A stretch of 54,030 nucleotides of DNA from Escherichia phage BSBP01. Shown here in pieces: positions 2,381 through 54,030 of this stretch; position 1 is the stretch's first letter; each line of letters opens with the position of its first letter. The notes beneath the pieces are model-generated. The model searched no databases. It saw only the letters and a program-made list of their open reading frames with translations, and was not told the DNA's origin. The DNA lies in the sequence record PQ231202.1, one strand, 5' to 3'. The position numbers and the translations under genes were made by a program.

Positions 2381-2406
2381 TTCCACATCCAACTAATGTT
2401 TCAGAA
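2381..2406 (-). promoter_or_regulatory. Copy 1 of conserved intergenic motif (plus-strand TTCAnnTCCAACTAATGT), candidate phage RNAP promoter
   Basis: Near-identical about 20-bp element recurs 7 times, always intergenic and in the same orientation upstream of minus-strand genes. Confidence 0.3.
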
Positions 2407-2428
2407 CTGCTCTGATTCGTCAAACGAC

Positions 2429-3103
2429 TCAATATCTATTGAATCGTTCTAGTGTTTTATTTACTAAATCCTTTGTCTCATCGACAGTGAGTTCAGTGAT
2501 GATTGATTCGTCATAACCCTCAATCTGGATTGCTACAAAACGCCCAACTCCAGTCACAGTGAGTCGGTTTGTTCTGTCACGAACAACTACACCAGCTTCT
2601 TGCGCGACTGCTCGCAACAATTTCCAGCGTAAAGTTCGATTTGGCACAGCAAAGCCCTTTGCCGAGAACAACTCTTTCATGAGTTCTCCAAGACAAACAG
2701 CTTCAATGTTTTGTCCTCTTCCAACTAATTCTTGCAACAGGCACAGTGTCAACATTTCTAAATTGTTGAAGTGTCCAGCGCGCTCCAAATTAAAGAACTC
2801 TGGAGGAACAGTTGAACGAGATTTAACAGCTTGCTTATATGCACGTTCTTCTTCCTGTGCAGCAAGCATTAGCATCTCTGGCTTGATGTATTTCATAGCA
2901 GAGAAGCCAGCGCGTGTGGCTTTAATTATGCGACAAGCCTCTTTCATCTTGTAGCGTTGCCACTCACCGCGCTTCGATTCTGGATTAAAATGGACCCACA
3001 TAATGATAACATCTTCCTTGGCAAGATAGACGGCATCATTATCATTGAGCCATTGCTTACACGTTGATAGTGCAATCTCTTTGTCATCATCATGATAAGA
3101 CAT
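2429..3103 (-). CDS. Hypothetical protein
   Basis: Long ORF; start placed at internal ATG (MSYHDDD) 2 nt past the stop of the upstream gene. Confidence 0.55.
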   Translation of the reverse strand: MSYHDDDKEIALSTCKQWLNDNDAVYLAKEDVIIMWVHFNPESKRGEWQRYKMKEACRIIKATRAGFSAMKYIKPEMLMLAAQEEERAYKQAVKSRSTVPPEFFNLERAGHFNNLEMLTLCLLQELVGRGQNIEAVCLGELMKELFSAKGFAVPNRTLRWKLLRAVAQEAGVVVRDRTNRLTVTGVGRFVAIQIEGYDESIITELTVDETKDLVNKTLERFNRY

Positions 3104-3104
3104 T

Positions 3105-3431
3105 TTAGTGGCCTTGTAGGATACGTTTGTTCGCAGTTTCTGCGTCGATTCCCAAATCAACTAATGTCACCAAGCACTGCGAAATCCGCTCTTGCGCAGC
3201 TTTCTCCAGAATTTGGTATTTTTCGTTGTCAACGCCTAACACATTCTTGGCATGAATGAGTGTAGCCATTAGACCATGACCCAAAGCAACAGCTTGCATT
3301 GCCTGGAGTTCAAAGTTAATTGTGATGCCAGCGAGTTCGTGCTCTTTCTGGATAATCTCAATCAACTCTTCTTTAGATTTGTCTTGTAAGTTCAAAATGG
3401 AACTCCGTAAACTGGTTGGTTTGTTGTCCAT
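3105..3431 (-). CDS. Hypothetical protein
   Basis: 108-aa ORF in the co-directional gene array. Confidence 0.5.
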   Translation of the reverse strand: MDNKPTSLRSSILNLQDKSKEELIEIIQKEHELAGITINFELQAMQAVALGHGLMATLIHAKNVLGVDNEKYQILEKAAQERISQCLVTLVDLGIDAETANKRILQGH

Positions 3432-3712
3432 TCGCGGGTTGCGATTTGCATGGACTTGTTTGGGCCGCAGTAGAAATATTTCTTAACTTCTGCAAGGGTG
3501 TATTTAGCACTACATTCGAGTATATCTTTGAAAGTGTGCTTCCAGAACCCGTCCTTCTCAGAAATTCTTACGGTGAAGTTGTTGGTCCCGTTGTAATACC
3601 AACGCCCACCAACGAGAACGAAGTGGATTGTTTCTTCCTCCTCTTCCCCACTTGGCGAAGACATTAGCACATTTCTTAACGTCAAAACTTTAGCAGAATG
3701 CTTACGAACCAT
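3392..3712 (-). CDS. Hypothetical protein
   Basis: ORF 3392..3736 with start moved to the internal Met to limit overlap. Confidence 0.45.
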   Translation of the reverse strand: MVRKHSAKVLTLRNVLMSSPSGEEEEETIHFVLVGGRWYYNGTNNFTVRISEKDGFWKHTFKDILECSAKYTLAEVKKYFYCGPNKSMQIATREWTTNQPVYGVPF

Positions 3713-3911
3713 TTTGCAACTCCTTAATTTTGGCAATTAAGTCGCGCATGATTTTAGGGCCAATAGCCAAGTCACCAGTCATATCATAAAGGTCACTGCC
3801 TATTGCTTTTGCATTATTCTCCCAACCCTCAATAAGTTCTAACAATTCTTCAATTGTGTAGCCCTTAAACTGAAAGTTTTCGTTATTAATTACGCCGTAT
3901 TTTTGAACCAT
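3702..3911 (-). CDS. Hypothetical protein
   Basis: 69-aa ORF. Confidence 0.45.
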   Translation of the reverse strand: MVQKYGVINNENFQFKGYTIEELLELIEGWENNAKAIGSDLYDMTGDLAIGPKIMRDLIAKIKELQNGS

Positions 3912-4460
3912 AGGAACTCTCCAATTTTCGATTCAGTGTTTGTGACTTCTCTTCTCATCTTTTGGCCCATGAAACAGGCCACAGAGTTGCGAAAATAGCC
4001 CTGTTTTAGGGCCATAGTCCAACCGTTTGTGTCAATTCTGGATAACTGCATTGGCGAAGGGTTACTCCCGTTAGGGTGCGGCCTACGCATCATATCTGCA
4101 TAGCAGCCTGGCAAGCTGCGGAGGCCACAGAGGCTTTGCAACCCTTCCCAATACATTCACCCAATCCACCTGCTTTGGCATAGCTGGTGGCGCGGTTTTG
4201 TGCGGATTATGCCACTCTAAGCCCTGTTTGTCCGACTTCCTCAGAGCACCAGCAGCTTGTGGCACAAACCTATTTTCGAATGACTAACATAAGCATGAGG
4301 CACAACCCTCTAATTATTCAGCCCTAACAGCTTGCTTATTTAGTTCCAATTCATCCCAATACATCGCCTATAACAAGTGAATAGCTTTTCTGCGAAGAAG
4401 TATTCCGGCCCTTTGGCCTATGTTAAAAAGATAAATGTATATGATGGAAACATTCCATCT

Positions 4461-4550
4461 TGAAGTTCCCTCGCGCAATCGGAAGGACTCGAACCTTTCA
4501 CTCCACCCTTGTGCACAGGGCTTCTACCCAGACGATATGGAAGGAACTTC
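4461..4550 (-). ncRNA. tRNA-like structured element (non-canonical; possibly degenerate tRNA)
   Basis: Minus strand carries a T-arm-like AAAGG-TTCGAGT-CCTTC, an anticodon-like hairpin GCCCT-GTGCACA-AGGGT and a closing stem GAAGTTC/GAACTTC, but spacing is not canonical. Confidence 0.2.
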
Positions 4551-4564
4551 AATGATGTTGTCTC

Positions 4565-4589
4565 TTCAATTCCAACTAATGTTTCAGAA
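4565..4589 (-). promoter_or_regulatory. Copy 2 of conserved promoter-like motif
   Basis: cttcaattccaactaatgtttcagaa. Confidence 0.3.
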
Positions 4590-4651
4590 TTATTCCAATA
4601 TTCCAAACAAAAAGAATAATAAGAATAAAATTAAATAAATGAAGAAAGTGC

Positions 4652-4681
4652 TTGACACCCATTTGGCGATAAGTGTATAAT
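4652..4681 (+). promoter_or_regulatory. Near-consensus sigma70-type promoter on the plus strand (TTGACA-N18-TGnTATAAT)
   Basis: TTGACA at 4652-4657 and TATAAT at 4676-4681 with TG at 4674-4675 and an AT-rich upstream tract; points opposite to all genes. Confidence 0.35.
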
Positions 4682-4706
4682 GCCTTTCTTCCCTAAGAGG
4701 TCAGAA

Positions 4707-4730
4707 TCAAATTCTACTAATGTTTCAGAA
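4707..4730 (-). promoter_or_regulatory. Copy 3 of conserved promoter-like motif (variant)
   Basis: tcaaattctactaatgtttcagaa. Confidence 0.25.
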
Positions 4731-4791
4731 TTAAGCCGAAGGCCAATGCGAGTACAAAACCCGCTTGGCACTTCGACGGAACAGCCTGGAA

Positions 4792-5028
4792 CTACACTGC
4801 CTTCCAATCTGAATCAAACAGTTCCTTCGGTCTTGTATAAATTATCGAATTAATTCCCAAGAAAGTATGATTTCCATACTTCTTAACTTCCTGGTAAGCA
4901 AACCCATCTACCCAATTGCCGCAGTGGGTTTTAATCTTTGTAGCAAACAGAATTCGATAGTAGTGACCACGAGGCTGGTGGAAGAGAATATCTTCTGGCT
5001 TGATTGAGTTGATATTTAAATCAGACAT
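4792..5028 (-). CDS. Hypothetical protein
   Basis: 78-aa ORF overlapping the next gene by a few nt. Confidence 0.45.
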   Translation of the reverse strand: MSDLNINSIKPEDILFHQPRGHYYRILFATKIKTHCGNWVDGFAYQEVKKYGNHTFLGINSIIYTRPKELFDSDWKAV

Positions 5029-5563
5029 TTAGGAATAATACTCCTTCAGAGAAGATATAGTCGCTGCCGAAGTCTTTCACAATTGCTTCCCAATCAATAT
5101 ATGGTGCAAGGCGGTCTGGAATATCCAGTGCTTCACTTTGCTTGAAGTAGTCTGCAATTGAATCGCAACGAGTAATGAACATGTCGTTCAAATCATTCAC
5201 AGTGAAAATATCAATATCACCACTGCGGAATGCTGCAAGAATTACATCCAAATCGGTGTCAACAAGCAGCTCATTGAACTTATCATACTTGCGAATGCTG
5301 AACAGGCCATTGGCAAAGCAAACTTCTGTTACATCTGCTTCACTTGATTCAAGTATGTCATAAGTCCCATCTTCTGGGTATTCGATGCCGTATTCTTCAT
5401 GCAAATAATCCCGCATGTCGAAATCATAGTGACGCCAAGACAGGCCATCAATCCACGCATCTACAAATTCAGAATTAGTTTCGCCTGTGTAGAAACGAAC
5501 CAATAAGGTTTCATCTCTACGCCAGGACTTAAGATTTTCTATTGCTTGGATAATGGTGCTCAT
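5021..5563 (-). CDS. Acidic protein, possible ArdA-like antirestriction (DNA mimic) protein
   Basis: 180 aa, highly Asp/Glu-rich; C-terminal segment resembles the ArdA C-terminus by eye. Confidence 0.4.
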
Positions 5564-5838
5564 ATGCTCTCCATTGTGTCAGTTAATGCACTATGTATTT
5601 TACGAAGTTTTACTAATCTTTCCTCGCTATTTTTAATAAGCGTCCGCATAATAGCTTCTTTCTCATTGAAGCTAATTTTCATGGAAGTTTCTCCAACCTC
5701 CATATAAGCATTTAATCGAACTTCATCGCTTAGATTCAGCGCAGACATTTGATGCAATTCTTTCTTTGCCTTATCTATACGGGCATAGTGATGCTGAATC
5801 TCTGCTGGTATGTCTTGATAATTCATCGGATTCTCCAT
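5560..5838 (-). CDS. Hypothetical protein
   Basis: 92-aa ORF. Confidence 0.45.
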
Positions 5839-5846
5839 TGATGAAG

Positions 5847-6260
5847 TTATGCTGGAAGTTCGAAGTGCGGCATATCAATCAGCTTCTTCTTACCTGGTGC
5901 AAGTGGTGGATACGGCTGATTTTCATCAATACGGCTCCAGTTCCCACCCCAACGAATGGTAATTCCAAGCTCTTTTGCAGCTTTGAACATGTGATGAGCT
6001 AAAACTTTGAATCGTTCGAGGTCATTCCAGTCAATTGGATATGGTGCAATGTCCAAAGCGTTACCAGACATGTGTCGGCTTACTGAAACTTTGGTTGCAC
6101 CTTGTTTTAACAGTTCTTGTTGACGTTCATAAGAGCGTAAACCTTCCAAAACAGTCACATCAAAAGGCATGGTTTCACATGCCCGTTTGAAAACTGCAAC
6201 TAATGAAGGATTTACTCCCTTAAGTCGGTCTAAAGAACGTTGACCGAGCTTAACATTCAT
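5847..6260 (-). CDS. L-alanyl-D-glutamate peptidase (M15 family) endolysin-type enzyme
   Basis: [11 protein letters not shown] and DMPHFE zinc-ligand motifs typical of M15 peptidases such as the T5 endolysin. Confidence 0.75.
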
Positions 6261-6535
6261 TATTTGCCCTTTAACGCATCGTTTAAAGTGTTGTTTAACA
6301 GTGTGTTGAGGTTATCAAGTTCATCAAATGATGCCTGAGCCTTGGTAACTTCATCAACAAGTAATGCTCGAAGTACTGCGTGCTCAACAAGCACCCATCC
6401 GTCAATACAGTCGATGAAAACTTTAACTTTATCAACTGGAGCATTTAAATCAAAGGCCGACAAGTCAGATTTGGCATTATCTAGCTTACCTTTTGCCTTG
6501 CTTAGTTCAACTGGAACTTGGTCAATCGAAATCAT
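6260..6535 (-). CDS. Hypothetical protein
   Basis: 91-aa ORF, start adjacent to the stop of the upstream gene. Confidence 0.45.
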   Translation of the reverse strand: MISIDQVPVELSKAKGKLDNAKSDLSAFDLNAPVDKVKVFIDCIDGWVLVEHAVLRALLVDEVTKAQASFDELDNLNTLLNNTLNDALKGK

Positions 6536-6765
6536 TGAAAGCTATTCCCACTAGGGTGAATGGTTAATTTGAAGGATACTAACTCTTTATTGATTGAGGT
6601 TGTTCCAATAACTGTTGCCTCAAACAACATAGATTTAGAAGTTTCCTTCCCCACACGTTCCAAGTATTTTACAACTCGGTCGTGAATTACTGCCCACTGG
6701 CGATATTCGCAATCAGATTCCAGCAGGTATTGAACCCCATCAATGGTAAATTCGGTTGAAGTCAT
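6532..6765 (-). CDS. Hypothetical protein
   Basis: 77-aa ORF with 4-nt overlap coupling. Confidence 0.45.
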   Translation of the reverse strand: MTSTEFTIDGVQYLLESDCEYRQWAVIHDRVVKYLERVGKETSKSMLFEATVIGTTSINKELVSFKLTIHPSGNSFQ

Positions 6766-7121
6766 TTCTTCTCCGCACAGCTGGTGGATAAGATAGGGTA
6801 GTTTGCTTTGAGGAAGTCTCCGTCACGGAAAATCTGAAGTACAAGTTTGTCTTCATGATTTATAAACAGTGCAGCAAACCTGCTATCTTTAATGTTGTAA
6901 AACAAAACTGTTGCAGGATTGGGTTCATCACTTGGAACCTCTATCCAAACACCAGCTTCAGGAATTATTGACGCAATCAGAGGTTGGCTATCTCCAATAT
7001 TATCAATTACAAGAGCATATGCTCCACATTTGAAGTTCTTTGTTGACGCTTTAGACTCAAAGCTGAAGAACGCCAAAACAATTAATGCTAAGGTATAAAT
7101 AATGATGTATTTAAGTCTCAT
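6762..7121 (-). CDS. Putative secreted protein
   Basis: N-terminal signal-like hydrophobic segment MRLKYIIIYTLALIVLAFFSFESKA. Confidence 0.45.
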   Translation of the reverse strand: MRLKYIIIYTLALIVLAFFSFESKASTKNFKCGAYALVIDNIGDSQPLIASIIPEAGVWIEVPSDEPNPATVLFYNIKDSRFAALFINHEDKLVLQIFRDGDFLKANYPILSTSCAEKK

Positions 7122-7173
7122 AATTCCTCCAATAATTAATCGAGGCCACTCGAAGTGGAATGACCTCTGTTAA

Positions 7174-7878
7174 TTACAGCTTCTTGATAAGCTCTGCGGA
7201 TTTGCTTGCAGCAACTTTCATTTCATCGCGTGCGGCTTTAGAGATTGATGCCTTGTCCACGCGAATATTACAGTTACCAACTGCAATCTTGCCATCTTCT
7301 GTTGGCGGAAGCTGAGTTAACTCCAGCATTTGCTCTAGCTTTTGCAGAAGAATGCGTTGTGCTTCGATTGCATTTTGAATATTTAATGTTTCCATTACTG
7401 CTCTCACCTTTCTTGAGAATGTTCCAGTTAGTGCCAGGCGTACTTGCAAACCTTTGACGCCAGCATAGTCCACATTCACTTTATTGGCTGGCGAATGTGG
7501 ATGTTTGTACACGTTTGTTACAGTTGCCCAATTGCCATTTACCCAAATAACATCGCCAACTTCCACATCTTTTCCGAGAACATCTTCTTCATCGGATATT
7601 TCCTGCTTCTTGAACTCCTCCACAGGAAGGAATACTGGATTTATTTGGTTAGGGAACTCAATTGTTGGGGTTTCCAAGGCTGGTGGTCTGTCAAGCAACT
7701 TGACTATACGACCAAGTTCAAAATTAAAGTACCCACCAGAATATTGCAGTTGAACTACATCACTAAATCGAAGTATATTTACAATTAAATATTCTCTGTT
7801 GTTATAGACTAATACATCACCAGTTTTAACCAGATTGGCTGGTATTTCGACAACCTTAGTTCCCATGATATTCCTCAC
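7174..7878 (-). CDS. Hypothetical protein
   Basis: 234-aa ORF. Confidence 0.55.
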   Translation of the reverse strand: MRNIMGTKVVEIPANLVKTGDVLVYNNREYLIVNILRFSDVVQLQYSGGYFNFELGRIVKLLDRPPALETPTIEFPNQINPVFLPVEEFKKQEISDEEDVLGKDVEVGDVIWVNGNWATVTNVYKHPHSPANKVNVDYAGVKGLQVRLALTGTFSRKVRAVMETLNIQNAIEAQRILLQKLEQMLELTQLPPTEDGKIAVGNCNIRVDKASISKAARDEMKVAASKSAELIKKL

Positions 7879-7987
7879 GCATTACTGCACAGTGTTTGCA
7901 AACCCAAATGGTTACATAATCGTTTTCGTGTGAAATTTCCCAATTATGTAGCCCTATAAAACATAAGATTTTCATAGGGCATCTCTA

Positions 7988-8365
7988 TTAGAACGGAATG
8001 TCGTCGTCGAAGTCTTTCGGCTCGTTCGGGTTGTAGTTGCTATTCTTCGTCTGTTGCTGAGCAGGTGCTTGCTGTTGTGCAGAAGGTTGCTGGCGTGGCT
8101 GTTGCTGTTGAGCGGCAGCTTGAGGTTGAGCTTTGGCTTTAGCTTTCTCTTCACGCTTACGCATCATTTCATCAACTTGTTCCTGAGTCATGATGGTGAG
8201 TTCCAATGAGGTAAATTCGGTGTTGCCAGCTTTCTTATTCCAGCCAGACACCCAATACCAGATACCTTCTACGTTAATGCGACCACGAACATCTGGATGA
8301 TTTTCAGCTTTCTTGAAGCTGTTGTTGCCCAGAATACCAGTGTTTAAATCGTTGAATTGTGCCAT
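7988..8365 (-). CDS. Small SSB-like protein ending in the host SSB tail motif DFDDDIPF
   Basis: N-terminal about 60-aa domain, Gln/Ala/Pro-rich linker, C-terminus DFDDDIPF matching the E. coli SSB tip as recalled. Confidence 0.55.
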   Translation of the reverse strand: MAQFNDLNTGILGNNSFKKAENHPDVRGRINVEGIWYWVSGWNKKAGNTEFTSLELTIMTQEQVDEMMRKREEKAKAKAQPQAAAQQQQPRQQPSAQQQAPAQQQTKNSNYNPNEPKDFDDDIPF

Positions 8366-8437
8366 GATTAATTTCTCTTTAAGTTAATTACAGTTTAAGT
8401 TTCAGTGACATTGCTAACCACGGAATAGCTTTGTCTC

Positions 8438-8458
8438 TCTTCAAATCCAACTAATGTT
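8438..8458 (-). promoter_or_regulatory. Copy 4 of conserved promoter-like motif
   Basis: cttcaaatccaactaatgtt, about 75 nt upstream of the SSB-like gene. Confidence 0.3.
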
Positions 8459-8499
8459 AGATTAATCATGGACACCTACAAGAGATGCCCATTGTTAAT

Positions 8500-8733
8500 T
8501 TAACGAGTCAGTTTGTCAAAGTACCACATATCTTTGGTAATCCACTCACCGCTTGGTGATTTAATGTAGCAACTACCATTGATTGTGTATTTGAACTCTG
8601 CTTGCTGCAATTCTGCAAAGGTTTTGCATTCATATTTGTAAACAAAGTATGTAGGCAGTCCAATGACAACCAGAACGGACAGCAACATTAGTACGAAAGG
8701 CACTACAATATCTTTCATAACCCAATTCATCAT
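8500..8733 (-). CDS. Small membrane protein
   Basis: N-terminal TM segment VVPFVLMLLSVLVVIGL. Confidence 0.4.
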   Translation of the reverse strand: MMNWVMKDIVVPFVLMLLSVLVVIGLPTYFVYKYECKTFAELQQAEFKYTINGSCYIKSPSGEWITKDMWYFDKLTR

Positions 8734-8832
8734 ATCCCCGCTTGTAGAAGGAGTAGGTTTGCAAAACCCAGAATAACTGTAAGTATAACGACACTGATAG
8801 TGAGTGTCAGTATTATATATTTGATACTGCCC

Positions 8833-9120
8833 TCACATTACCTTTGATACAGGAATTGGGTCGATTGTGGTTTCAGGTTTATACCAACTTACTTCGCCAG
8901 AATCTTTAACAAGCTCCCACAAATTGGAGAATGTACGATAAGATAAATTGCGGTTATCATCATTAACGACAAAACCCAAAGGAGATTGAATATACGCACC
9001 GAGTGTACCGTTGTTGCGAGGAACCCCGTCACCACGACCTGCGACGATTTTGTATTCTTTACCGTTGGTAAAGTTGTAATTTGTTTTACCAACATAACGC
9101 AAAATTGAATTCTTGTTCAT
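8833..9120 (-). CDS. Hypothetical protein
   Basis: 95-aa ORF. Confidence 0.45.
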   Translation of the reverse strand: MNKNSILRYVGKTNYNFTNGKEYKIVAGRGDGVPRNNGTLGAYIQSPLGFVVNDDNRNLSYRTFSNLWELVKDSGEVSWYKPETTIDPIPVSKVM

Positions 9121-9437
9121 TTCTTAACTTTCTCCCATTTAGATAGGCCACCTTCGAGGTTGAAGATGCGGTTACAACCAGACTCATCTTTAATGACAAA
9201 TTGAGTTCCGGTCAATTGAATTGGCTCAAGTGCACCAAACAGCACTTTAGGTTTTGATAGGCTGGTGGCAAGAACAACATAAACTTTGCTTGGGCAAATA
9301 TCAAAAGCAAAGTCACGAGTGTAAACCAAATCACCAACTTTCAAATATGCTGGCAACATGCGACCTGTGGCTGGGTCACGCTGTAAACGAGTACGCTGTT
9401 TCATAAATGCTCCAAGTTGATTAATAATATTCAGCAA
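9117..9437 (-). CDS. Hypothetical protein
   Basis: 106-aa ORF. Confidence 0.45.
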   Translation of the reverse strand: MLNIINQLGAFMKQRTRLQRDPATGRMLPAYLKVGDLVYTRDFAFDICPSKVYVVLATSLSKPKVLFGALEPIQLTGTQFVIKDESGCNRIFNLEGGLSKWEKVKK

Positions 9438-9466
9438 CCACTCTCGCTACAAAGTGGTTGAGGAAA

Positions 9467-9697
9467 TTATTTGACTTCTTCCCAAGACCAGATTCCACCC
9501 TCCAAAGGAACACTTTCTCCTTCTTCAAAGTACGAATAACCATTGGCGTCTTTACGGTCGCTGTCTTTTGAAATACTTATGCGAGGCTCGATTCCATAAC
9601 CTCGCTTCACATGCATAACCCTTCCCTCAATCACATCACCAACCTTTGGTGAGTTTGCTCCATAAGAGGTTGATTTTACACATTTAAACTTTGTCAT
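9467..9697 (-). CDS. Hypothetical protein, paralogue of 9694..9921
   Basis: Shares N-terminal KFKCV-ST and a W-W motif with the adjacent ORF. Confidence 0.45.
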   Translation of the reverse strand: MTKFKCVKSTSYGANSPKVGDVIEGRVMHVKRGYGIEPRISISKDSDRKDANGYSYFEEGESVPLEGGIWSWEEVK

Positions 9698-9921
9698 TGT
9701 AATGCGCCTTGTTCACAAATGTCTGCAAATTCTGCACGATGGTCACGCTGCCATGTCCAGAATGCACCATTCATAGGAACGACAGCACCTTTACGGAATG
9801 CTGGAGAAATGCTTTCAGCAGATTTGGTTACTTTAAATTCCAAAGGCGAAATAGCTTCACCTTCAATGATTAAGCCAACTGGAACGTAGTCTTTGGTTGA
9901 AGCAACACATTTAAATTTCAT
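9694..9921 (-). CDS. Hypothetical protein, paralogue of 9467..9697
   Basis: Tandem duplicate, see above. Confidence 0.45.
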   Translation of the reverse strand: MKFKCVASTKDYVPVGLIIEGEAISPLEFKVTKSAESISPAFRKGAVVPMNGAFWTWQRDHRAEFADICEQGALQ

Positions 9922-9923
9922 GA

Positions 9924-10127
9924 TTAACCTTTTGGTGGAATATTTCCACTATTGTCTATTAACTTTCCACGATAAATATTAAACCCACAAGCAACACAGA
10001 ATGCATTATCCAAAACTACAGGACCATACATTCCAACTGCTTCATGTGCAACATGGTCTACATCAATGCTATTGCAGCGAGGACATATTACTACATCCTC
10101 TTCGTCAAAGTTCATGATATAAAACAC
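9924..10127 (-). CDS. Small zinc-ribbon protein
   Basis: CPRC...CVAC cysteine pairs. Confidence 0.45.
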   Translation of the reverse strand: MFYIMNFDEEDVVICPRCNSIDVDHVAHEAVGMYGPVVLDNAFCVACGFNIYRGKLIDNSGNIPPKG

Positions 10128-10410
10128 CTAATTCTGATTCAAGTTTAAATTCACGAAAGAAATCCAATGTTACAAATCGGATTTTACCTTCATCATCAAC
10201 TACGTTACAAGACATTTCGGAATGGACCATACGGCCCATCTTCAAGGCGACTTCTGAAAGGTTTGCTTCACCAGTTCCAGATATAACACGGTAAATCTTA
10301 TACGGCTCGAAACCTGCCAAAGAGTTATTACGGCGTGGTACGAGCATCATGCCAGTTTTAGTAGCCATAATAACTCCGATATTAAAAGTACATGAATGCT
10401 CCAACAACAA
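10105..10410 (-). CDS. Hypothetical protein
   Basis: 101-aa ORF. Confidence 0.45.
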   Translation of the reverse strand: MLLEHSCTFNIGVIMATKTGMMLVPRRNNSLAGFEPYKIYRVISGTGEANLSEVALKMGRMVHSEMSCNVVDDEGKIRFVTLDFFREFKLESELGVLYHEL

Positions 10411-10465
10411 GGAACACGAGTGGGAACATCAGAATACAGAATACAAGTTTCTTTACAATATCCAT

Positions 10466-10684
10466 TTATTTCACCAGGAAGTAGAGAACAATCAGGAATC
10501 CAACACATGCAATAATGGTTGGCATATACTTATCACGAGCACGAGGAACATATTGTTGCTGTTTAGTCTTGCCTTCCAAATGATTCATTAATTCAGTATG
10601 ATTCATTTGTTGCAGAAATGTGTTGAATTGCTGGTCGTTCATTATTTGTTCCTTAGCTTTACATTCTTCCCAACAAGTACACAA
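10466..10684 (-). CDS. Small tail-anchored membrane protein
   Basis: C-terminal TM segment IIACVGFLIVLYFLV. Confidence 0.35.
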   Translation of the reverse strand: MCTCWEECKAKEQIMNDQQFNTFLQQMNHTELMNHLEGKTKQQQYVPRARDKYMPTIIACVGFLIVLYFLVK

Positions 10685-10981
10685 TCTTTAAGCCATCGTG
10701 TTTTTAGATTTGCTGGGAACCAGGATTTAAATTCTTCGGAGTAAACCCTTGTGAAATGGAATTCGGGTGTGGTTAGTATGAGCATCCCACCACCAGTTCT
10801 TAGTAGCAGATTCTCGTAACTCACTTAATACTCCAATTCCCAAATACCAGGTTAACTATTTTAGCCACTTTACGTGCTGGCATACGAGGATTTGCAGCTC
10901 TCGCTAATTTCTTAGCCTTACGCTTTGAAGCACCGTACATAGCCATGTAGGTAACCGTTTTGGTCATATATTTGAGCTTCT

Positions 10982-11164
10982 TCATTTTCCACTCCGAGCA
11001 GCATCAAGCTGTTCTTCAAGAAGATTGATGTGTTGGCCTAAGAACAAGGCCATTTCACGAGAAATTACAACAGATTCGATTTTCGGATTTTCTGCCACTT
11101 GCTTAACACCTTGCAGGAAACTCCAAAGACTCACTTCTTCATTTTCGAACATGGTTAACCTCAA
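10982..11164 (-). CDS. Hypothetical protein
   Basis: 60-aa ORF. Confidence 0.35.
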   Translation of the reverse strand: MRLTMFENEEVSLWSFLQGVKQVAENPKIESVVISREMALFLGQHINLLEEQLDAARSGK

Positions 11165-11394
11165 TAGAAGTTTGCTGCCAGATTTTCCAACACTTTGACA
11201 GTCAAAACATCATCGTTAAGTTGTTGGAAAGTGATATCAATCCCAACTTCATCTTTAATACGAACAACAAGCTCACTTAAAATAGTGTCAGCCCAACCAC
11301 AATAGTTGACAATAATTCTCTCTTGAAGGAATTCTACTTTCTCTTCGTAAGAGGCCAACTCGATTAAGTCAGCCTTTAATTTAAACTGTGTCAT
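11161..11394 (-). CDS. Hypothetical protein
   Basis: 77-aa ORF. Confidence 0.4.
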   Translation of the reverse strand: MTQFKLKADLIELASYEEKVEFLQERIIVNYCGWADTILSELVVRIKDEVGIDITFQQLNDDVLTVKVLENLAANFY

Positions 11395-11579
11395 CTTGCC
11401 TCCAGAATTTGATTTAATCCACTGAACACGATTTCTTCATGTTCGTCAGTTGTACATGCATTGATGTAATCAAAGTCATAACCAACAAACTTCTCCGCCC
11501 ACTCCTGTAAACGAAGTAAAGAATTGAAGTACAACCTTTGCTCTACACCATTTAATTTGAAGAAGACGATGAAGTCCAT
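11391..11579 (-). CDS. Hypothetical protein
   Basis: ORF 11391..11663 trimmed to the internal Met to avoid overlap. Confidence 0.35.
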   Translation of the reverse strand: MDFIVFFKLNGVEQRLYFNSLLRLQEWAEKFVGYDFDYINACTTDEHEEIVFSGLNQILEAR

Positions 11580-11581
11580 GA

Positions 11582-11824
11582 TTAGCCTCTTACTTTCAGG
11601 AAGTCTGGATGTGCGGCAGTTGCCACAACTTTGTGATGTTTGTCGTTCTGGATTGCTTGCCAAACATATTCAGGATATGCGGCATTCTTCCACACCAGTT
11701 TGTTTTCGTAAATTGATGTGCCACACATTAGGTCTGCCAACATTATTGCTCTGGTCCTAGTATTAACCAAAGCATGAGAAACAACGCCATCACGATTAAT
11801 GTATTGATAGAGTGCATAATTCAT
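11582..11824 (-). CDS. Hypothetical protein
   Basis: 80-aa ORF. Confidence 0.4.
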   Translation of the reverse strand: MNYALYQYINRDGVVSHALVNTRTRAIMLADLMCGTSIYENKLVWKNAAYPEYVWQAIQNDKHHKVVATAAHPDFLKVRG

Positions 11825-11826
11825 AA

Positions 11827-12033
11827 CTAAACTCCGTATCTCTTGTATTTGTCGCCTTTGGAGACTTCCAAATATTCCTCAAATGTGAAAGTCCTCTCCT
11901 TGCTGTTTAATCTTGCCAACGACAAGTCTGCAACAAATTCGGCATTAAAACCTTTGTTAGAGGTCTTTCTCATGTGTGCCCCACCTCGTGTAAAGAATGT
12001 TGCACCTTCTGGTAAATCTTCGAAATTAGTCAT
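11827..12033 (-). CDS. Hypothetical protein
   Basis: 68-aa ORF, first gene after the repeat-rich non-coding region. Confidence 0.4.
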   Translation of the reverse strand: MTNFEDLPEGATFFTRGGAHMRKTSNKGFNAEFVADLSLARLNSKERTFTFEEYLEVSKGDKYKRYGV

Positions 12034-12323
12034 TTTATTCTCCTAAGTTAAAAGAAAACTCCCTACAGAACGATTGTGGAGGTCTTGTCTTACCTCAGTC
12101 CACCTTAAAGTTGTAGGGAGTTATATAGTATTCCTGTGTGTGCCGCCATCAGGGACTTCCTAGTCTGGTGGGCGCGTCGCAATCCAGCAATATACCACAC
12201 GTTTTTCACAGGCTATATATGTGACACACAAAGTGTCTAAAAACTACAATGATTAGCTTGGAGACATAATCTCTCTAAAATCTGTCACACAATTTCAGCA
12301 GAATTTACAGAGATTTGGTCTTA

Positions 12324-12340
12324 TTCACATGCAACTAATG
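12324..12340 (-). promoter_or_regulatory. Copy 5 of conserved promoter-like motif (variant)
   Basis: ttcacatgcaactaatg. Confidence 0.25.
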
Positions 12341-13238
12341 ATAAATGGACATGCTTAATTGCAACTAACTCATCTGCCAAATAGACGAATTTTGTCACAA
12401 TTAAACATGCGTCATTAATTACAGGTTTACTCCCATCTTGGAATGTATTTGGCACATTAAGATTGGAGCAAGTAGGTACGGAAAACCGACCATGTACAGC
12501 ATAATAAAACAAATTAAATAAAGGGTTTTATCCCAATATTGTCACAATATTACATGCGATGATAAAGCCTTCGCTTGGCTGGAAGCCAGTATTCATGCGG
12601 GTTGCAAGAATATTGGGTCAATACTGATACAGCTATTACATGCGAAATTGGCACAAATACTGTTACAAAATTAACATGCCAGATTGGTAGACGATTGTAT
12701 CTTCGAGGTGATTAGTCCTCTAACAATTCTGCCACATTCCAACATGCCAATTTGTAGCAATATTTACATGCCATACTGCGACGCAATTGTCACAATATTT
12801 GTTGCTCAAAATCGGGGCGGCTTCTGCGTGTAAACGAGAGGCTTTGCTCCGACTCTTCTCTTCTTTCGAATTCTGATTGAAAGAAAGAAGCATGTCCAAA
12901 AGTTCCAGTCTTGTAAAAGTTATCTCCCGGCTTGTGGGTGGGCCTTGATAATAGGAGTAACAGGTTGTCCGCTATTTTGTGCACTGAGCTAGGATTGAAT
13001 CCAGATTGCACTTTACTAGGTGGCGAACCAAGATTGAAACTAATAGACATGCTATAGGTGAAGTACAAGTTTCGAAGTATATAATCCTACTCTTTGCCAT
13101 GGTTGCTGGAACTATGGGTAGCTAATCCAGGGAGTTCGACAATTGCCACATTGCCACAACACTTTGACTCAAGCTGTCATGCTGAATGTTTCTAGAATGA
13201 TTCAACATTACATGCGGAATATTTATCCGTATTCTTTT

Positions 13239-13258
13239 ACTTCACATCCAACTAATGT
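13239..13258 (-). promoter_or_regulatory. Copy 6 of conserved promoter-like motif
   Basis: cttcacatccaactaatgtc, just downstream of the RNAP gene. Confidence 0.3.
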
Positions 13259-13361
13259 CGAATATTGAAACAATATTACATGCAGCAATATTGCTTGAAT
13301 ATTGGGATTTAGTTGTTGATGCACAAGAATAGGGCCAGTGTTTCCACCAGCCCCGTTTCTC

Positions 13362-15302
13362 TTATTGACAGAAGTAGTAAGCGTGTTCGCTCATCAGAAG
13401 CTCTTCGGTTACGATGTTCTCATGATACATCTGAATGCCACCGAGTTGCTTAGACAGATTCTCGAATTGATTGTTGGTTACGAAGATTTCAACATATGCT
13501 GCACGAATAACTTCCATCATACGTGGAGCATCTGCCAAACAGCAACGGAAACAATCGTGGATTGAAGTGAAACCACGAAGACCAGCTTCTTTAGCTTTAA
13601 CAGCAACAGTACGAGCAACCAATGCGTCGATACCTTGAATATAGTTGACTACGAAAGTACGCTTGAATTCCTCTTTAGTAGGATTGGATTCACGAATGGT
13701 CCAAGGTTTCTCTTCCTGAATCTGGCCAAAGATAACACGAGTTTGAGAGTCAACACGAATGCTGAATGCATCACAGATTTCACGAGATGGGAAGCAAGGC
13801 TTCATTACAACCTGACCATCAGTGTGCTTATAGGTGATGTATTCCTTGTTAAGCTCAACACAACGTTGATATGCAGCATCAGCAGCTTTCTCAATGAACA
13901 TGTTAATCTTAGCACCCAATGCGTTATGGATTGCTTCCACACACAGTTCAGCAAATGCCTCAGCCTTCTCAACTGGAATCTGAAGAGATGCAGTCATGTA
14001 AGAGATAAAGTCAGAAGAACCAGTTAAAGCAGCTTTACCACCACCATACTGAATAGCCATGTATGGAGTTTTGATAAACTTACGACCAGCTTTCGGATTC
14101 AAGAACTCTTCCATGATTTCAACAGAAGGTTTCATTGAAGACTTATCCAGCAGCTTCAACAGTTCACGAAGACTCAACTGGTATGGGTCAGATGCTTTAG
14201 TCTCAGAATCAACCAGACCTGTTGCACGAGCCATTTCCATGTTACCAGCAATGAATGCCAGATACTGAGTACCAGAACATTTAGCATCTAAGCCAAAGCC
14301 TACACGAGAATCGCATTCACCTGTAGTCTCAAACTTGAACCAATCCAGAGCCAGACGAACATAAGTGAATGGCTTAGAAGGACGTTCAGCTTTAGGCATG
14401 TTCATCATGCGAGCAAGTGAACCAGCTGGATTCTGAGCAACATAAGTTAAACGTTTAGCAGAGCACCAGTCTCCACCAGAAATGTCTTCCAGCTCAGCCA
14501 TGAACATGTTGTATGCAATGGTAGTAGAACCATCTTCGTTAAACTTCTTAACGATGTTCTCAACATTGTGAGAATACAAGCAACGAGCAAAGTCAGAGGA
14601 TTGTGGGTTAGGACCAGCACATGCTACATGATACAGGCGACCACGGTTATCAGCAAAGTAGTCAGAATAGAGTGTATCCTGAGTCATCATTGCTACAGCA
14701 TTGTTCCAAACATGGAGTTCAGTCTGGATTGCTTCTGGCATCTGCAAGCCACCATAAGTACGTTGTTCAAGCATGGACTGGATGATGCGAACCATCTCAG
14801 TCTCCACATGGTACTCAGTATCTTGCAGGAATTCGATTGCAGCTTTCAGAGTTTTGGATGGCTTAACTTTGCCACCTTTAACGAAAGGCTTGCGACGAGA
14901 TTCAGATGTAACACGCTCAGTGAATGGCACTGCTGTGTCTTTGGTTGTAACCAGTTCAACCCATGTGTCAGTTTGTTGGAATGACTTGTCTTCGTTCATG
15001 GTGATGAAGCCGAAGTGCTTAGCCAGACCAATGAGGTTGATAGCTGGGTCAACATAGTGCATTGCTTTCAAATCGTTGTTGTAGCGATTGGCATCAGCAA
15101 TAGAAGCAGAAGCCAGCTCAACCATCGCAATGGCAGGAACAACATCATCACGTGTGAAAGACGTCATCATCTTGAATATGGCTAAGGCAGCAATAGCACA
15201 AGTCTGAGGCTGCATATAGTTCTGCTTCTCTTTGGCACGGTATACCAGAGCAGTGATAGCAGGAACAACAGATTTGATAGTTTGAGTGGTGATAGTAGTC
15301 AT
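13362..15302 (-). CDS. Single-subunit T7-like DNA-dependent RNA polymerase, N-terminally minimal (646 aa)
   Basis: Motif A LDAKCSGTQY, motif B RKFIKTPYMAIQYGGG, motif C TSIHDCF and a VNYIQGID segment align to T7 RNAP catalytic motifs. Confidence 0.8.
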   Translation of the reverse strand: MTTITTQTIKSVVPAITALVYRAKEKQNYMQPQTCAIAALAIFKMMTSFTRDDVVPAIAMVELASASIADANRYNNDLKAMHYVDPAINLIGLAKHFGFITMNEDKSFQQTDTWVELVTTKDTAVPFTERVTSESRRKPFVKGGKVKPSKTLKAAIEFLQDTEYHVETEMVRIIQSMLEQRTYGGLQMPEAIQTELHVWNNAVAMMTQDTLYSDYFADNRGRLYHVACAGPNPQSSDFARCLYSHNVENIVKKFNEDGSTTIAYNMFMAELEDISGGDWCSAKRLTYVAQNPAGSLARMMNMPKAERPSKPFTYVRLALDWFKFETTGECDSRVGFGLDAKCSGTQYLAFIAGNMEMARATGLVDSETKASDPYQLSLRELLKLLDKSSMKPSVEIMEEFLNPKAGRKFIKTPYMAIQYGGGKAALTGSSDFISYMTASLQIPVEKAEAFAELCVEAIHNALGAKINMFIEKAADAAYQRCVELNKEYITYKHTDGQVVMKPCFPSREICDAFSIRVDSQTRVIFGQIQEEKPWTIRESNPTKEEFKRTFVVNYIQGIDALVARTVAVKAKEAGLRGFTSIHDCFRCCLADAPRMMEVIRAAYVEIFVTNNQFENLSKQLGGIQMYHENIVTEELLMSEHAYYFCQ

Positions 15303-15368
15303 TTGTAAGTCTCCAAGATTGTGTATGATTTAACTGAAACGGATTATAATAGCGTAGCCATTACACAA

Positions 15369-15384
15369 TTCACTTCCAACTAAT
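15369..15384 (-). promoter_or_regulatory. Copy 7 of conserved promoter-like motif, about 70 nt upstream of the RNAP gene
   Basis: ttcacttccaactaat. Confidence 0.3.
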
Positions 15385-15550
15385 ATCACAAACCTGTGCC
15401 ATTGTTACAACAGCACGGAGACTTTGACCTTGACCCATAAGCGAAGCGCCTAACTTGGTGTTGTTTGAAAGCCGATAGGCTGTAGGAAAAAGTTGGAGTA
15501 GGGACCGTATTTAAGTCCGATAGGACGTTGGGCTTCCCCTCCCCGCTGGC

Positions 15551-15815
15551 CCAAAAATAAAATTATAATATTGCCACAATTCTAGTCTCGTTAATATCGT
15601 AACAATTCGAGTATCGTAGCTTTGTTACGAATTCTAGTCTCATTAATTCTGTAGCAATATTGAAAATAAAAAAAAAATTATAAAAAAAATTATTTAATAG
15701 TCGGTTTTCCATTCGAACAAATTTCGGCGAGATACAGTTGACCGACCATGTACCATTTGGTTTTAACTTTACGCATTCCTAATATTACTCTTAATATTGT
15801 AGCAATATTGGGAAT
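15551..15815. repeat. AT-rich non-coding region with direct and inverted repeats and poly-A runs
   Basis: aattctagtctc at 15578 and 15630; inverted repeat cgtaacaa/ttgttacg at 15598-15629; TGTAGCAATATT copies also seen in the 12.3-13.3 kb region. Confidence 0.45.
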
Positions 15816-15925
15816 AAATAAATATTTAATTTACTTGTCTTATTCTAGCTCAAAGAGAAACGACGCTAACGCATCGAATCTCTTCTCGCATATAACTGAC
15901 AAACGTCAGCCTTCACCGTATCCAA

Positions 15926-52286: not shown

Positions 52287-52967
52287 TTATTCCTGGTTGG
52301 TCAGAGCCTTCCAACAAATTGGGAATAGTTCTGACATGATTTTATTCACTTCTTCCGCAAACAAGCGAACTTCATATTGCGCATGTTCGGAGGAACGTTG
52401 ATTATACATAGATGCCCAGCCATAAAGTGAGCCAGTCCAAATCCATTCAGTCATCATGGATTGTGGAAGAACCATGCGAGCTTGCTCTGGGGCAATCCCC
52501 AAACCAATTAACGTTTCATACTCTGCGATGCAAGCCTTGTTATAGCTTTCCATGCGATAATGAATATCGTCAGCAAAATCTTGTGGCAACGGTTGTGCAG
52601 TCTGAGTCATCAACTTTTCAGGACGACCAAATACAACACCTGGAACAAAGCATTCAATAGAGATTGCTTCGCCATCTTTGTAACGACGGCTAACCTCATT
52701 CCAACTAAAGCCAGTTTGATGTTTGCCAAGCTGACGTGCAATGAAGATTGGAGCTTTGCAACGCAATGTTACCTGTGCATGACGGAACGGCGTAATGTGT
52801 TTATGCTTTGCAAGAAACTCAATCAGCTTCTCGTCACGTAAAGATATTTCATGTGACTCTGCACCATAAGAAACTCGTGCAGCATTAACAGTTGTGAGGT
52901 CGCTGCCCATTGAATCTACTAATGTTGCGGTTATTTGTGGCTTAACCATTATTTGCGTATTCTCCAT
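52287..52967 (-). CDS. thyX: Flavin-dependent thymidylate synthase ThyX-like
   Basis: Aligns by eye along its length to ThyX; RHR position reads KHQ. Confidence 0.7.
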   Translation of the reverse strand: MENTQIMVKPQITATLVDSMGSDLTTVNAARVSYGAESHEISLRDEKLIEFLAKHKHITPFRHAQVTLRCKAPIFIARQLGKHQTGFSWNEVSRRYKDGEAISIECFVPGVVFGRPEKLMTQTAQPLPQDFADDIHYRMESYNKACIAEYETLIGLGIAPEQARMVLPQSMMTEWIWTGSLYGWASMYNQRSSEHAQYEVRLFAEEVNKIMSELFPICWKALTNQE

Positions 52968-53903: not shown

Positions 53904-54030
53904 TCGGGATGAGGAGTAACCCAAATAAAAGCCTGAACTTTCTTTCTGCACAACACAATCAGCGCAACTAAGCCGTATCGCTACGGTATGCCAGACGCTC
54001 TCTTGAGCCTTTTGAACAGAGGCATAACTG
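53904..54030. repeat. Second copy of the 127-bp terminal repeat
   Basis: Identical to 1-127. Confidence 0.9.

Follow-up and report, generated by a model that had tools for sequence, protein, structure and literature searches.

Phages of the family Chaseviridae are described in the ICTV profile as having linear, non-permuted and terminally redundant DNA with repeats of approximately 3 kb, and the ICTV counts the terminal repeat when chasevirus species are compared. Individual accounts of chasevirus packaging are inconsistent, with headful or permuted genomes reported for some phages and repeats of 2.3, 2.6 or 3.2 kb for others. Here we analyse a 623-base spacer (positions 15303-15925) of Escherichia phage BSBP01 (PQ231202.1), which is flanked by nrdB and the gene for a single-subunit RNA polymerase, within the whole 54,030-nucleotide stretch of DNA, hereafter the window. 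Judged from the sequences of its relatives, the genome-end junction of this phage probably lies in the spacer, with the packaged DNA starting at approximately 15514-15519 and a terminal repeat of about 2.66 kb.

This placement is carried by relatives whose ends are on record. The repeat boundaries of six chaseviruses were taken from public records, whereas those of the window phage are predicted by homology. In the following list a caret marks the left boundary.

vB_EamM-Y2: repeat of 2608 bases; left boundary CTGTCG^GACTT
PM1: repeat of 2665 bases; left boundary CTATCG^GGAG
Mangalitsa: repeat of 3234 bases; left boundary TATCGGAC^TTAAA (PhageTerm)
4HA13: repeat of 3120 bases; left boundary TATCGGAC^TTAAA (PhageTerm)
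Myduc: repeat of 3202 bases; left boundary CCCTAT^CGGGAG (PhageTerm)
JL1: repeat of 2995 bases; left boundary CCTAT^CGGAC (the record holds both copies)

In all six relatives, which represent five genera, the left boundary falls within a single six-base stretch of a small hairpin, H1, that corresponds to minus-strand positions 15519-15514 of the window. Over the 65 bases before this boundary, boundary element included, the window matches Mangalitsa base for base. It is also identical to Mangalitsa over the 55 bases before the right boundary that PhageTerm gave for that phage, which places the right boundary of the window at 12855, or at 12851 by the position in JL1, where the boundary lies 4-5 bases further on. 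The predicted repeat contains the whole polymerase gene.

12855..15514, minus strand: predicted long direct terminal repeat of 2660 bases, each boundary within about 5 bases either way, from homology
12847..12860, minus strand: predicted right repeat boundary, GAGAAG^AGTC^GGAG, from identity with Mangalitsa
13362..15302, minus strand: single-subunit RNA polymerase gene, 646 amino acids (PHROG 414, E = 1.6e-96)

The arrangement of the locus is shared as well. In Y2, PM1, Mangalitsa, 4HA13, Myduc and JL1, as in the window, lysis genes with or without nrdB are followed by the spacer and then by the polymerase gene. The spacers are homologous, and the repeat starts approximately 210-420 bases before the polymerase gene and encloses all of it. 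In length the predicted repeat is near those of Y2 and PM1 and shorter than those of Mangalitsa, JL1, 4HA13 and Myduc, because of insertions and deletions (indels) inside the repeat. An earlier, sequence-only reading of this DNA had described an AT-rich region upstream of the RNA polymerase gene, with direct repeats, an inverted repeat, poly-A runs and boxes shared with the 12-13 kb region, and had named a packaging site or physical genome end among its possible functions. The gene is where that reading put it and every element that it listed is present. Homology to the six left boundaries supports the idea of a physical end and moves it out of the AT-rich repeats, to a GC-rich hairpin 50-150 bases downstream.

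The hairpin belongs to a block (15400-15555) with a guanine plus cytosine (GC) content of 50.6%, on which the sequence-only reading had not remarked; its description of the region as AT-rich holds for 15556-15850, where GC content is 26.8% compared with 43.9% for the whole window. The GC-rich block holds the most conserved elements of the spacer.

15515..15526, minus strand: hairpin H1, GTCC-TATC-GGAC, containing the mapped left boundaries of relatives
15500..15511, minus strand: nearly invariant block AATACGGTCCCT, directly inside the predicted end, between H1 and H2
15470..15481, minus strand: hairpin H2, AGCC-TATC-GGCT, with a second copy of the CCTATCGG core, 45 bases beyond H1

The 54-kb window has just two exact copies of CCTATCGG, at 15472-15479 and 15517-15524. 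The CC-TATC-GG core is invariant in both hairpins, and the arms around it vary in a manner that preserves their pairing. This was assessed in 14 distinct sequences from isolates and metagenomes, for which pattern scans of IMG/VR and metagenomes supplied extra homologs, most of the other matches being chance. Across this set the arms of H1 take the forms GTCC/GGAC, CTCCC/GGGAG, ATCCC/GGGAT, AGTCC/GGACT and TAAGTCC/GGACTTA, and those of H2 include GAAGCC/GGCTTC, TAGCC/GGCTA, GAGCC/GGCTC and GTCC/GGAC; a metagenome homolog adds the pair ACTCC/GGAGT. In a loop-anchored alignment 87% of cells are paired, and six of the ten pairs have changed on both sides. Covariation scored 0.276, compared with 0.10 in shuffles; none of 500 shuffles reached this value, and slid controls fell far below it. 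RNAalifold, run independently, predicted exactly H1 and H2 and nothing else. In the AATACGGTCCCT block, GTCCC is invariant among the 14 sequences and the remainder is at least 90% conserved.

Since the arms of H1 and H2 differ within one phage and each is nevertheless complementary, we infer that the conserved property is pairing within a strand and not a symmetric binding site on double-stranded DNA. The coincidence of H1 with the mapped ends favours pairing in DNA rather than in RNA. Whether H1 is the actual recognition or cut element we regard as evenly balanced. Two further interpretations of the hairpins were tried and rejected. A large structured RNA does not agree with the folding of the 161-base block, which is no more stable than that of shuffled sequence (z = 0.2), with the two small hairpins that are all RNAalifold returned, or with Rfam, where no family matched in the spacer at either gathering or permissive thresholds. 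Dispersed hairpin promoters of the kind used by an N4-type virion polymerase do not agree with a core that occurs only twice, both times in this one spacer.

A possible third small hairpin was noted by eye in the same block, and was not predicted by RNAalifold.

15438..15453, minus strand: candidate third hairpin, TTAGGCG-CTT-CGCTTA

At this position relatives have CCTGC-TTCG-GCAGG and CCCAC-TTC-GTGGG, again by eye. Separately, three related IMG/VR contigs (49, 13 and 7 kb) that lack a related polymerase gene in the vicinity have an intergenic gap in which TCGGTGTAATACGGTCCCTG and, 7 bases after it, CCTATCGG are found; the end element described here may thus exist in another phage group as well, or the match may be chance.

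The two predicted boundaries of the repeat also have a short sequence in common. A YCGGA-like sequence (YCGGA or YCGGG) is found at both boundaries in most phages with mapped ends, in the form TATCGGAC at the left and as GTCGGAG, GTCGGAC, CCGGACA or GACGGAC at the right. The corresponding sites in the window are at 12847-12855 and 15515-15522. Reported cuts scatter by up to about 5 bases around such sites, which would fit staggered cuts or differences in method.

Further elements lie just outside the predicted boundaries. The boxes that the sequence-only reading had found to be common to the spacer and the 12-13 kb region are strongly non-random: the generalised box TGYNNCAATATT has 10 exact matches, where 0.56 would be expected, and all of them fall within 12535-12799, 13261-13292 or 15567-15809. 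These are the two non-coding regions that flank the polymerase gene, around the repeat boundaries. The sequence TGTAGCAATATT has exact copies at 12753, 15650 and 15798, and copies that differ by a single mismatch at 13281 and 15567 (minus strand); at up to one mismatch it gives six matches against 0.43 expected.

15567..15578, minus strand: box TGTGGCAATATT, the one nearest the end, lying outside the left repeat boundary by about 52 bases
15793..15809, no strand assigned: back-to-back box pair of the TGYNNCAATATT family, AATATTGCTACAATATT on the minus strand, conserved across genera in alignment
12535..12799, no strand assigned: TGYNNCAATATT box cluster, immediately beyond the right repeat boundary; on the minus strand the boxes often have the longer form GCATGTAATATTGTGACAATATT

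The box nearest the left boundary has a counterpart in a mirror-oriented TGYNNCAATATT box at 12788-12799, about 55 bases outside the right boundary, and the offsets are similar in 4HA13. Box clusters are conserved in five genera; the one at the right boundary is shared by the window with Y2, PM1, 4HA13, Myduc and Mangalitsa. As a boundary signal this mirror arrangement is suggestive only. An extended mirror symmetry between the repeat flanks was considered and rejected: the match is confined to the box, of about 15 bases, with z of about 3 in four of the six phages and none in Myduc or Y2.

The 1.3-kb stretch after the polymerase gene (12050-13361), which contains the predicted right repeat boundary, is without a convincing gene. 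A 23-base motif, which on the minus strand reads GCATGTAATATTGTGACAATATT or a variant of it, recurs there approximately nine times and is conserved in Y2, PM1, 4HA13, Myduc and Mangalitsa. Two phage-promoter-like motifs (13247 and 12330) lie in the stretch as well. Possible roles for the 23-base motif are in an origin, in early promoters or in packaging signals.

Taken together, the twin CC-TATC-GG hairpins, the YCGGA sequence at both boundaries and the mirror TGYNNCAATATT boxes about 50 bases outside them might form an undescribed, partly structure-specific signal for the cutting and duplication of genome ends in myoviruses that have long terminal repeats and a T7-like polymerase. We put this forward tentatively, as an idea more doubtful than the position of the end itself. 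In the chasevirus papers and records, as far as we found, there is no prior description of the twin hairpins, the shared cut motif or the boundary boxes.

The spacer also carries candidate promoters on either side of the predicted end.

15594-15565, minus strand: sigma-70-like candidate TTAACG-18-TATTAT (promoter scan, 9 of 12 matches)
15369..15387, minus strand: phage-promoter-like motif GATATTAGTTGGAAGTGAA, inside the predicted repeat, with the polymerase start codon 72 bases further on

The sigma-70-like candidate is the sole such site on the coding strand of the spacer. It lies approximately 45-50 bases outside the predicted end and is overlapped by a perfect TATAAT at 15562-15567. A -10-like box (TATAAT or TATTAT) with a T run after it is conserved across genera at this distance from the end, about 45-50 bases. 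The homologous site in phiEcoM-GJ1 (EF460875) is annotated as a putative sigma-70 host promoter, and its -35 (TTGACG) is stronger than that of the window (TTAACG). The suggestion in the sequence-only reading that host promoters lie here finds some backing in this candidate at an annotated site, and none in the number of sites in the region, which is not above that in shuffles. From its sequence, we consider it possible that the site is functional, at slightly short of an even chance. Lying outside the repeat, it would on linear DNA precede only the right-hand copy of the polymerase gene.

The motif inside the repeat belongs to a wider family. Its core, ATTAGTTGGA, is also that of the sites which phiEcoM-GJ1 (EF460875) has annotated as "putative phage promoters". 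At up to one mismatch it matches at 16 places, where 4.3 would be expected, and 15 of these are on the coding strand. An extended consensus is shared by six copies; all six are in sense orientation, in or near the gaps before early and middle genes, and four are clearly intergenic, 73-179 bases before the start of an open reading frame. The window has homologs of phiEcoM-GJ1 phage promoters 1, 2, 3 and 5 at 13247, 12330, 8446 and 4571, whereas the copy before the polymerase gene (15375) is without annotation in phiEcoM-GJ1. As chasevirus promoters have, according to the ICTV profile, yet to be identified, we treat the phage-type motif as a candidate promoter; the paper on ST32 makes no statement on genome ends or promoters. 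All the extended-consensus copies are in the early and middle part of the genome (minus strand, 2388-15384). No such copy was found before the late structural and lysis genes (17-42 kb) in the window, and a different signal or read-through may therefore serve the late genes.

Several points weigh against an end at H1 and against the signals proposed around it. The boundary records are partly dependent on one another, as the 4HA13 genome was re-aligned to Mangalitsa and both PM1 and SSEM1 start as Y2 does. Even so, the six-base stretch has no fewer than three distinct reported cut positions, obtained in different laboratories by different methods. The window begins and finishes with the same 127 bases (1-127 and 53904-54030), leaving a unique genome of 53,903 bases. 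Such ends point to a circular de novo assembly in which any terminal repeat has been collapsed to one copy. The ends of this phage are placed by homology only. The hairpin stems are short, at 4-7 pairs, and the block around them has no excess folding stability. Mirror similarity of the two flanks is limited to the box and is absent in two of the phages, and the sigma-70-like site is weak, with a -35 that is not conserved and a background of promoter-like matches no denser than in shuffles. In addition, headful packaging was the PhageTerm call for the chasevirus Fifi44, the original suggestion for phiEcoM-GJ1 was a circularly permuted genome, and both repeat boundaries of PYps23T (MW147598) were placed at ATTAGTTGGA by ligation and polymerase chain reaction (ligation-PCR), giving a repeat of 2339 bases.

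The sequence-only reading had also named an origin, and the AT-rich part of the spacer lends itself to such an explanation, in which its boxes and tandem units are origin iterons beside an easily melted stretch, like the primary origin of T7 next to gene 1.

15578..15658, no strand assigned: three tandem units of 26 bases, with the AATTCTAGTCTC repeat and the inverted repeat within them
15668..15689, plus strand: A10 run (15668-15677) and A8 run (15682-15689), T runs on the coding strand, in the segment of 26.8% GC

An origin of this kind would be compatible with a nearby end. Repeated boxes do lie beside an AT-rich stretch that contains A runs, a trait that is not specific to origins. The boxes are confined to the two non-coding regions flanking the polymerase gene, phage-promoter-like motifs adjoin the box clusters, and the phage encodes a T7-like primase/helicase and DNA polymerase. 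However, boundary recognition would account for the boxes no less well, given that they are found at both repeat boundaries and in either orientation, and overall we consider an origin here unlikely. As for the tandem units themselves, the two AATTCTAGTCTC copies start at 15578 and 15630, 52 bases apart, and an exact 12-mer repeat appears in 60 of 2000 shuffles of the region (about 3%). The number and sequence of the 26-base units differ among close relatives, and the lengths of the A runs vary among them also. The inverted repeat that the sequence-only reading had picked out, TCGTAACAA/TTGTTACGA at 15597-15605 and 15622-15630, does exist as a pair of 9-base arms. Inverted repeats of this length were present in 1661 of 2000 shuffles (83%), and close relatives are without the 26 bases that hold one arm. 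It thus carries no evidential weight and was rejected as a functional element.

A second explanation takes the spacer to be purely a region of transcription control, with host early promoters, a phage promoter and a structured messenger leader for the polymerase gene. Packaging would then be headful and permuted with no fixed end, and the hairpins would act in RNA, perhaps as sites of processing or of protein binding. The reports on Fifi44 and phiEcoM-GJ1 are in its favour, as is the description of the large terminase of the chasevirus group as resembling T1-like headful terminases. A conserved -10-like box upstream of the hairpins implies that they would be transcribed, and their covariation is equally compatible with pairing in RNA. 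Against this stand six relatives, representing five genera, whose defined repeat boundaries coincide exactly with H1, and the non-permuted genomes that the ICTV profile gives for the family; hairpins acting in RNA would also have to be reconciled with the absence of an Rfam match, even at a permissive threshold, and of excess folding stability in the block. We think it rather improbable that the spacer serves transcription only.

The record of PYps23T suggests a third possibility, that the physical end lies at the phage-promoter-like motif. The repeat would then span 2128 bases, from 15374 to 13247, and ATTAGTTGGA would immediately precede each of its boundaries. This sequence is present at both homologous places in the window (15375-15384 and 13247-13256), and in PYps23T itself an exact 2339-base repeat, supported by ligation-PCR and restriction mapping, has boundaries that follow ATTAGTTGGA at 52531 and 2339. 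However, these boundaries are about 140 bases at the left and about 390 at the right from those of the six other chaseviruses, and those six, including the congeneric Mangalitsa and JL1, end 140 bases upstream of the PYps23T position, in H1. A junction exactly at a 10-base sequence common to both sites is, we infer, the expected product of PCR template switching or recombination, and the restriction data (about 2.5 kb extra) do not separate a repeat of 2.3 kb from one of 2.7-2.9 kb. The PYps23T boundary may be a PCR or recombination artefact, or it may be a real difference; as the position of the end in the window, it seems to us a poor prospect.

A gene for a small protein, or for a small RNA of a known type, is very hard to credit in the spacer: small frames are annotated in relatives (flopper_25, PYps23T ORF081 and Mangalitsa_082) and the window has a mechanical 49-amino-acid open reading frame, but indels of lengths other than multiples of three make the annotated frames disagree among close relatives, with low-complexity products unlike each other, so that small protein genes were rejected, and neither an Rfam family nor, with ARAGORN, a transfer RNA or transfer-messenger RNA was found in the spacer.

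The remaining features of the spacer concern its two edges and one further conserved element.

15851..15876, minus strand: terminator-like hairpin with a T-rich tail, directly after the nrdB stop codon (terminator scan)
15733..15749, minus strand: conserved element ATGGTCGGTCAACTGTA (alignment), with a related copy at 12474-12497
15300..15314, minus strand: ribosome-binding site GGAG and ATG of the RNA polymerase gene

The position of the hairpin at the end of nrdB is kept in relatives and the changes in its stem are compensatory, in an alignment read by eye; it is likely to mark the end of the late transcription unit. GTACATGGTCGGT(CAACTGTA) is found in both non-coding regions (15733-15749 and 12474-12497), and five genera have conserved it, once or twice, in the homologous spacer; a partial inverted partner, ACCGAC, lies about 40 bases downstream.

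The window as a whole derives from a Carltongylesvirus-like chasevirus. Its closest relatives in searches with nucleotide and protein sequences include ST32, phiEcoM-GJ1, flopper, Mangalitsa and PYps23T; these searches gave no identical public record, and an exact look-up of the polymerase in public assemblies had no match. The phage has the single-subunit RNA polymerase, the gene order and the nucleotide similarity of the Chaseviridae. The large genes are on the minus strand of the window, and the polymerase is 92-98% identical to those of Carltongylesvirus phages. A record labelled Staphylococcus phage Pel53 (PP952070.1, host Staphylococcus hyicus) is 80-91% identical to the window spacer, with flanking genes alike; given this Escherichia-type chasevirus spacer, the host label seems doubtful.

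Returning to the reading in which the packaged DNA starts at H1, we can propose how the elements of the spacer might work together. Read along the coding (minus) strand, their order would be the late-gene terminator, approximately 300 AT-rich bases with the boxes and the 26-base units, the sigma-70-like promoter and, about 45-50 bases on, the left repeat boundary in H1, followed by the phage-promoter-like motif and then the ribosome-binding site and polymerase gene. The packaged molecule would begin at approximately 15514-15519 and finish with a second copy of approximately 12855-15514, and the AT-rich 300 bases would be its last single-copy stretch. During packaging, the terminase or a partner nuclease may cut concatemers at the H1 hairpin and again at the right boundary. 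Recognition would be provided by the hairpins and by the TGYNNCAATATT boxes that flank the repeat. By analogy with the model for T7 and T3, the repeat could be duplicated by strand-displacement synthesis. On incoming linear DNA, host polymerase would first express the right-hand copy of the polymerase gene, and the left-hand copy would be preceded by the phage-type motif only.

A terminal-repeat end is expected for this phage family, and the gain is modest, in that a known feature is refined and no new kind of system is described. If the repeat is as predicted, each virion would carry the polymerase gene twice, in two promoter contexts. The two copies would then be wired differently, the right-hand one behind a host promoter and the left-hand one behind a phage promoter only. 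Knowing where the packaged genome starts would allow its correct orientation and annotation and a sound species comparison, and the conserved hairpins and boxes are concrete candidates for the end-forming signal that can be mutated.

The comparison that these features invite is with T7 and T3, in which duplication of the terminal repeat has been proposed to proceed by strand-displacement synthesis. The concatemer junction of these phages is reportedly treated in the work of Dunn and Studier from 1983, of Chung, Nardone and Hinkle from 1990 and of Fujisawa and Morita from 1997. There are clear differences. The repeat of T7 is 160 bases long and is not known to carry a gene, whereas about 2.66 kb with the polymerase gene is predicted here, and the sequences are unrelated; unlike T7, the window phage is a myovirus, with a terminase grouped with T1-like enzymes. 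The likenesses lie in the layout of the end. T7 and T3 are also phages with a single-subunit RNA polymerase and non-permuted direct terminal repeats. In both, arrays of short repeats lie on either side of the terminal repeat, a promoter reads across the junction, and a hairpin or inverted repeat has been implicated in duplicating the repeat.

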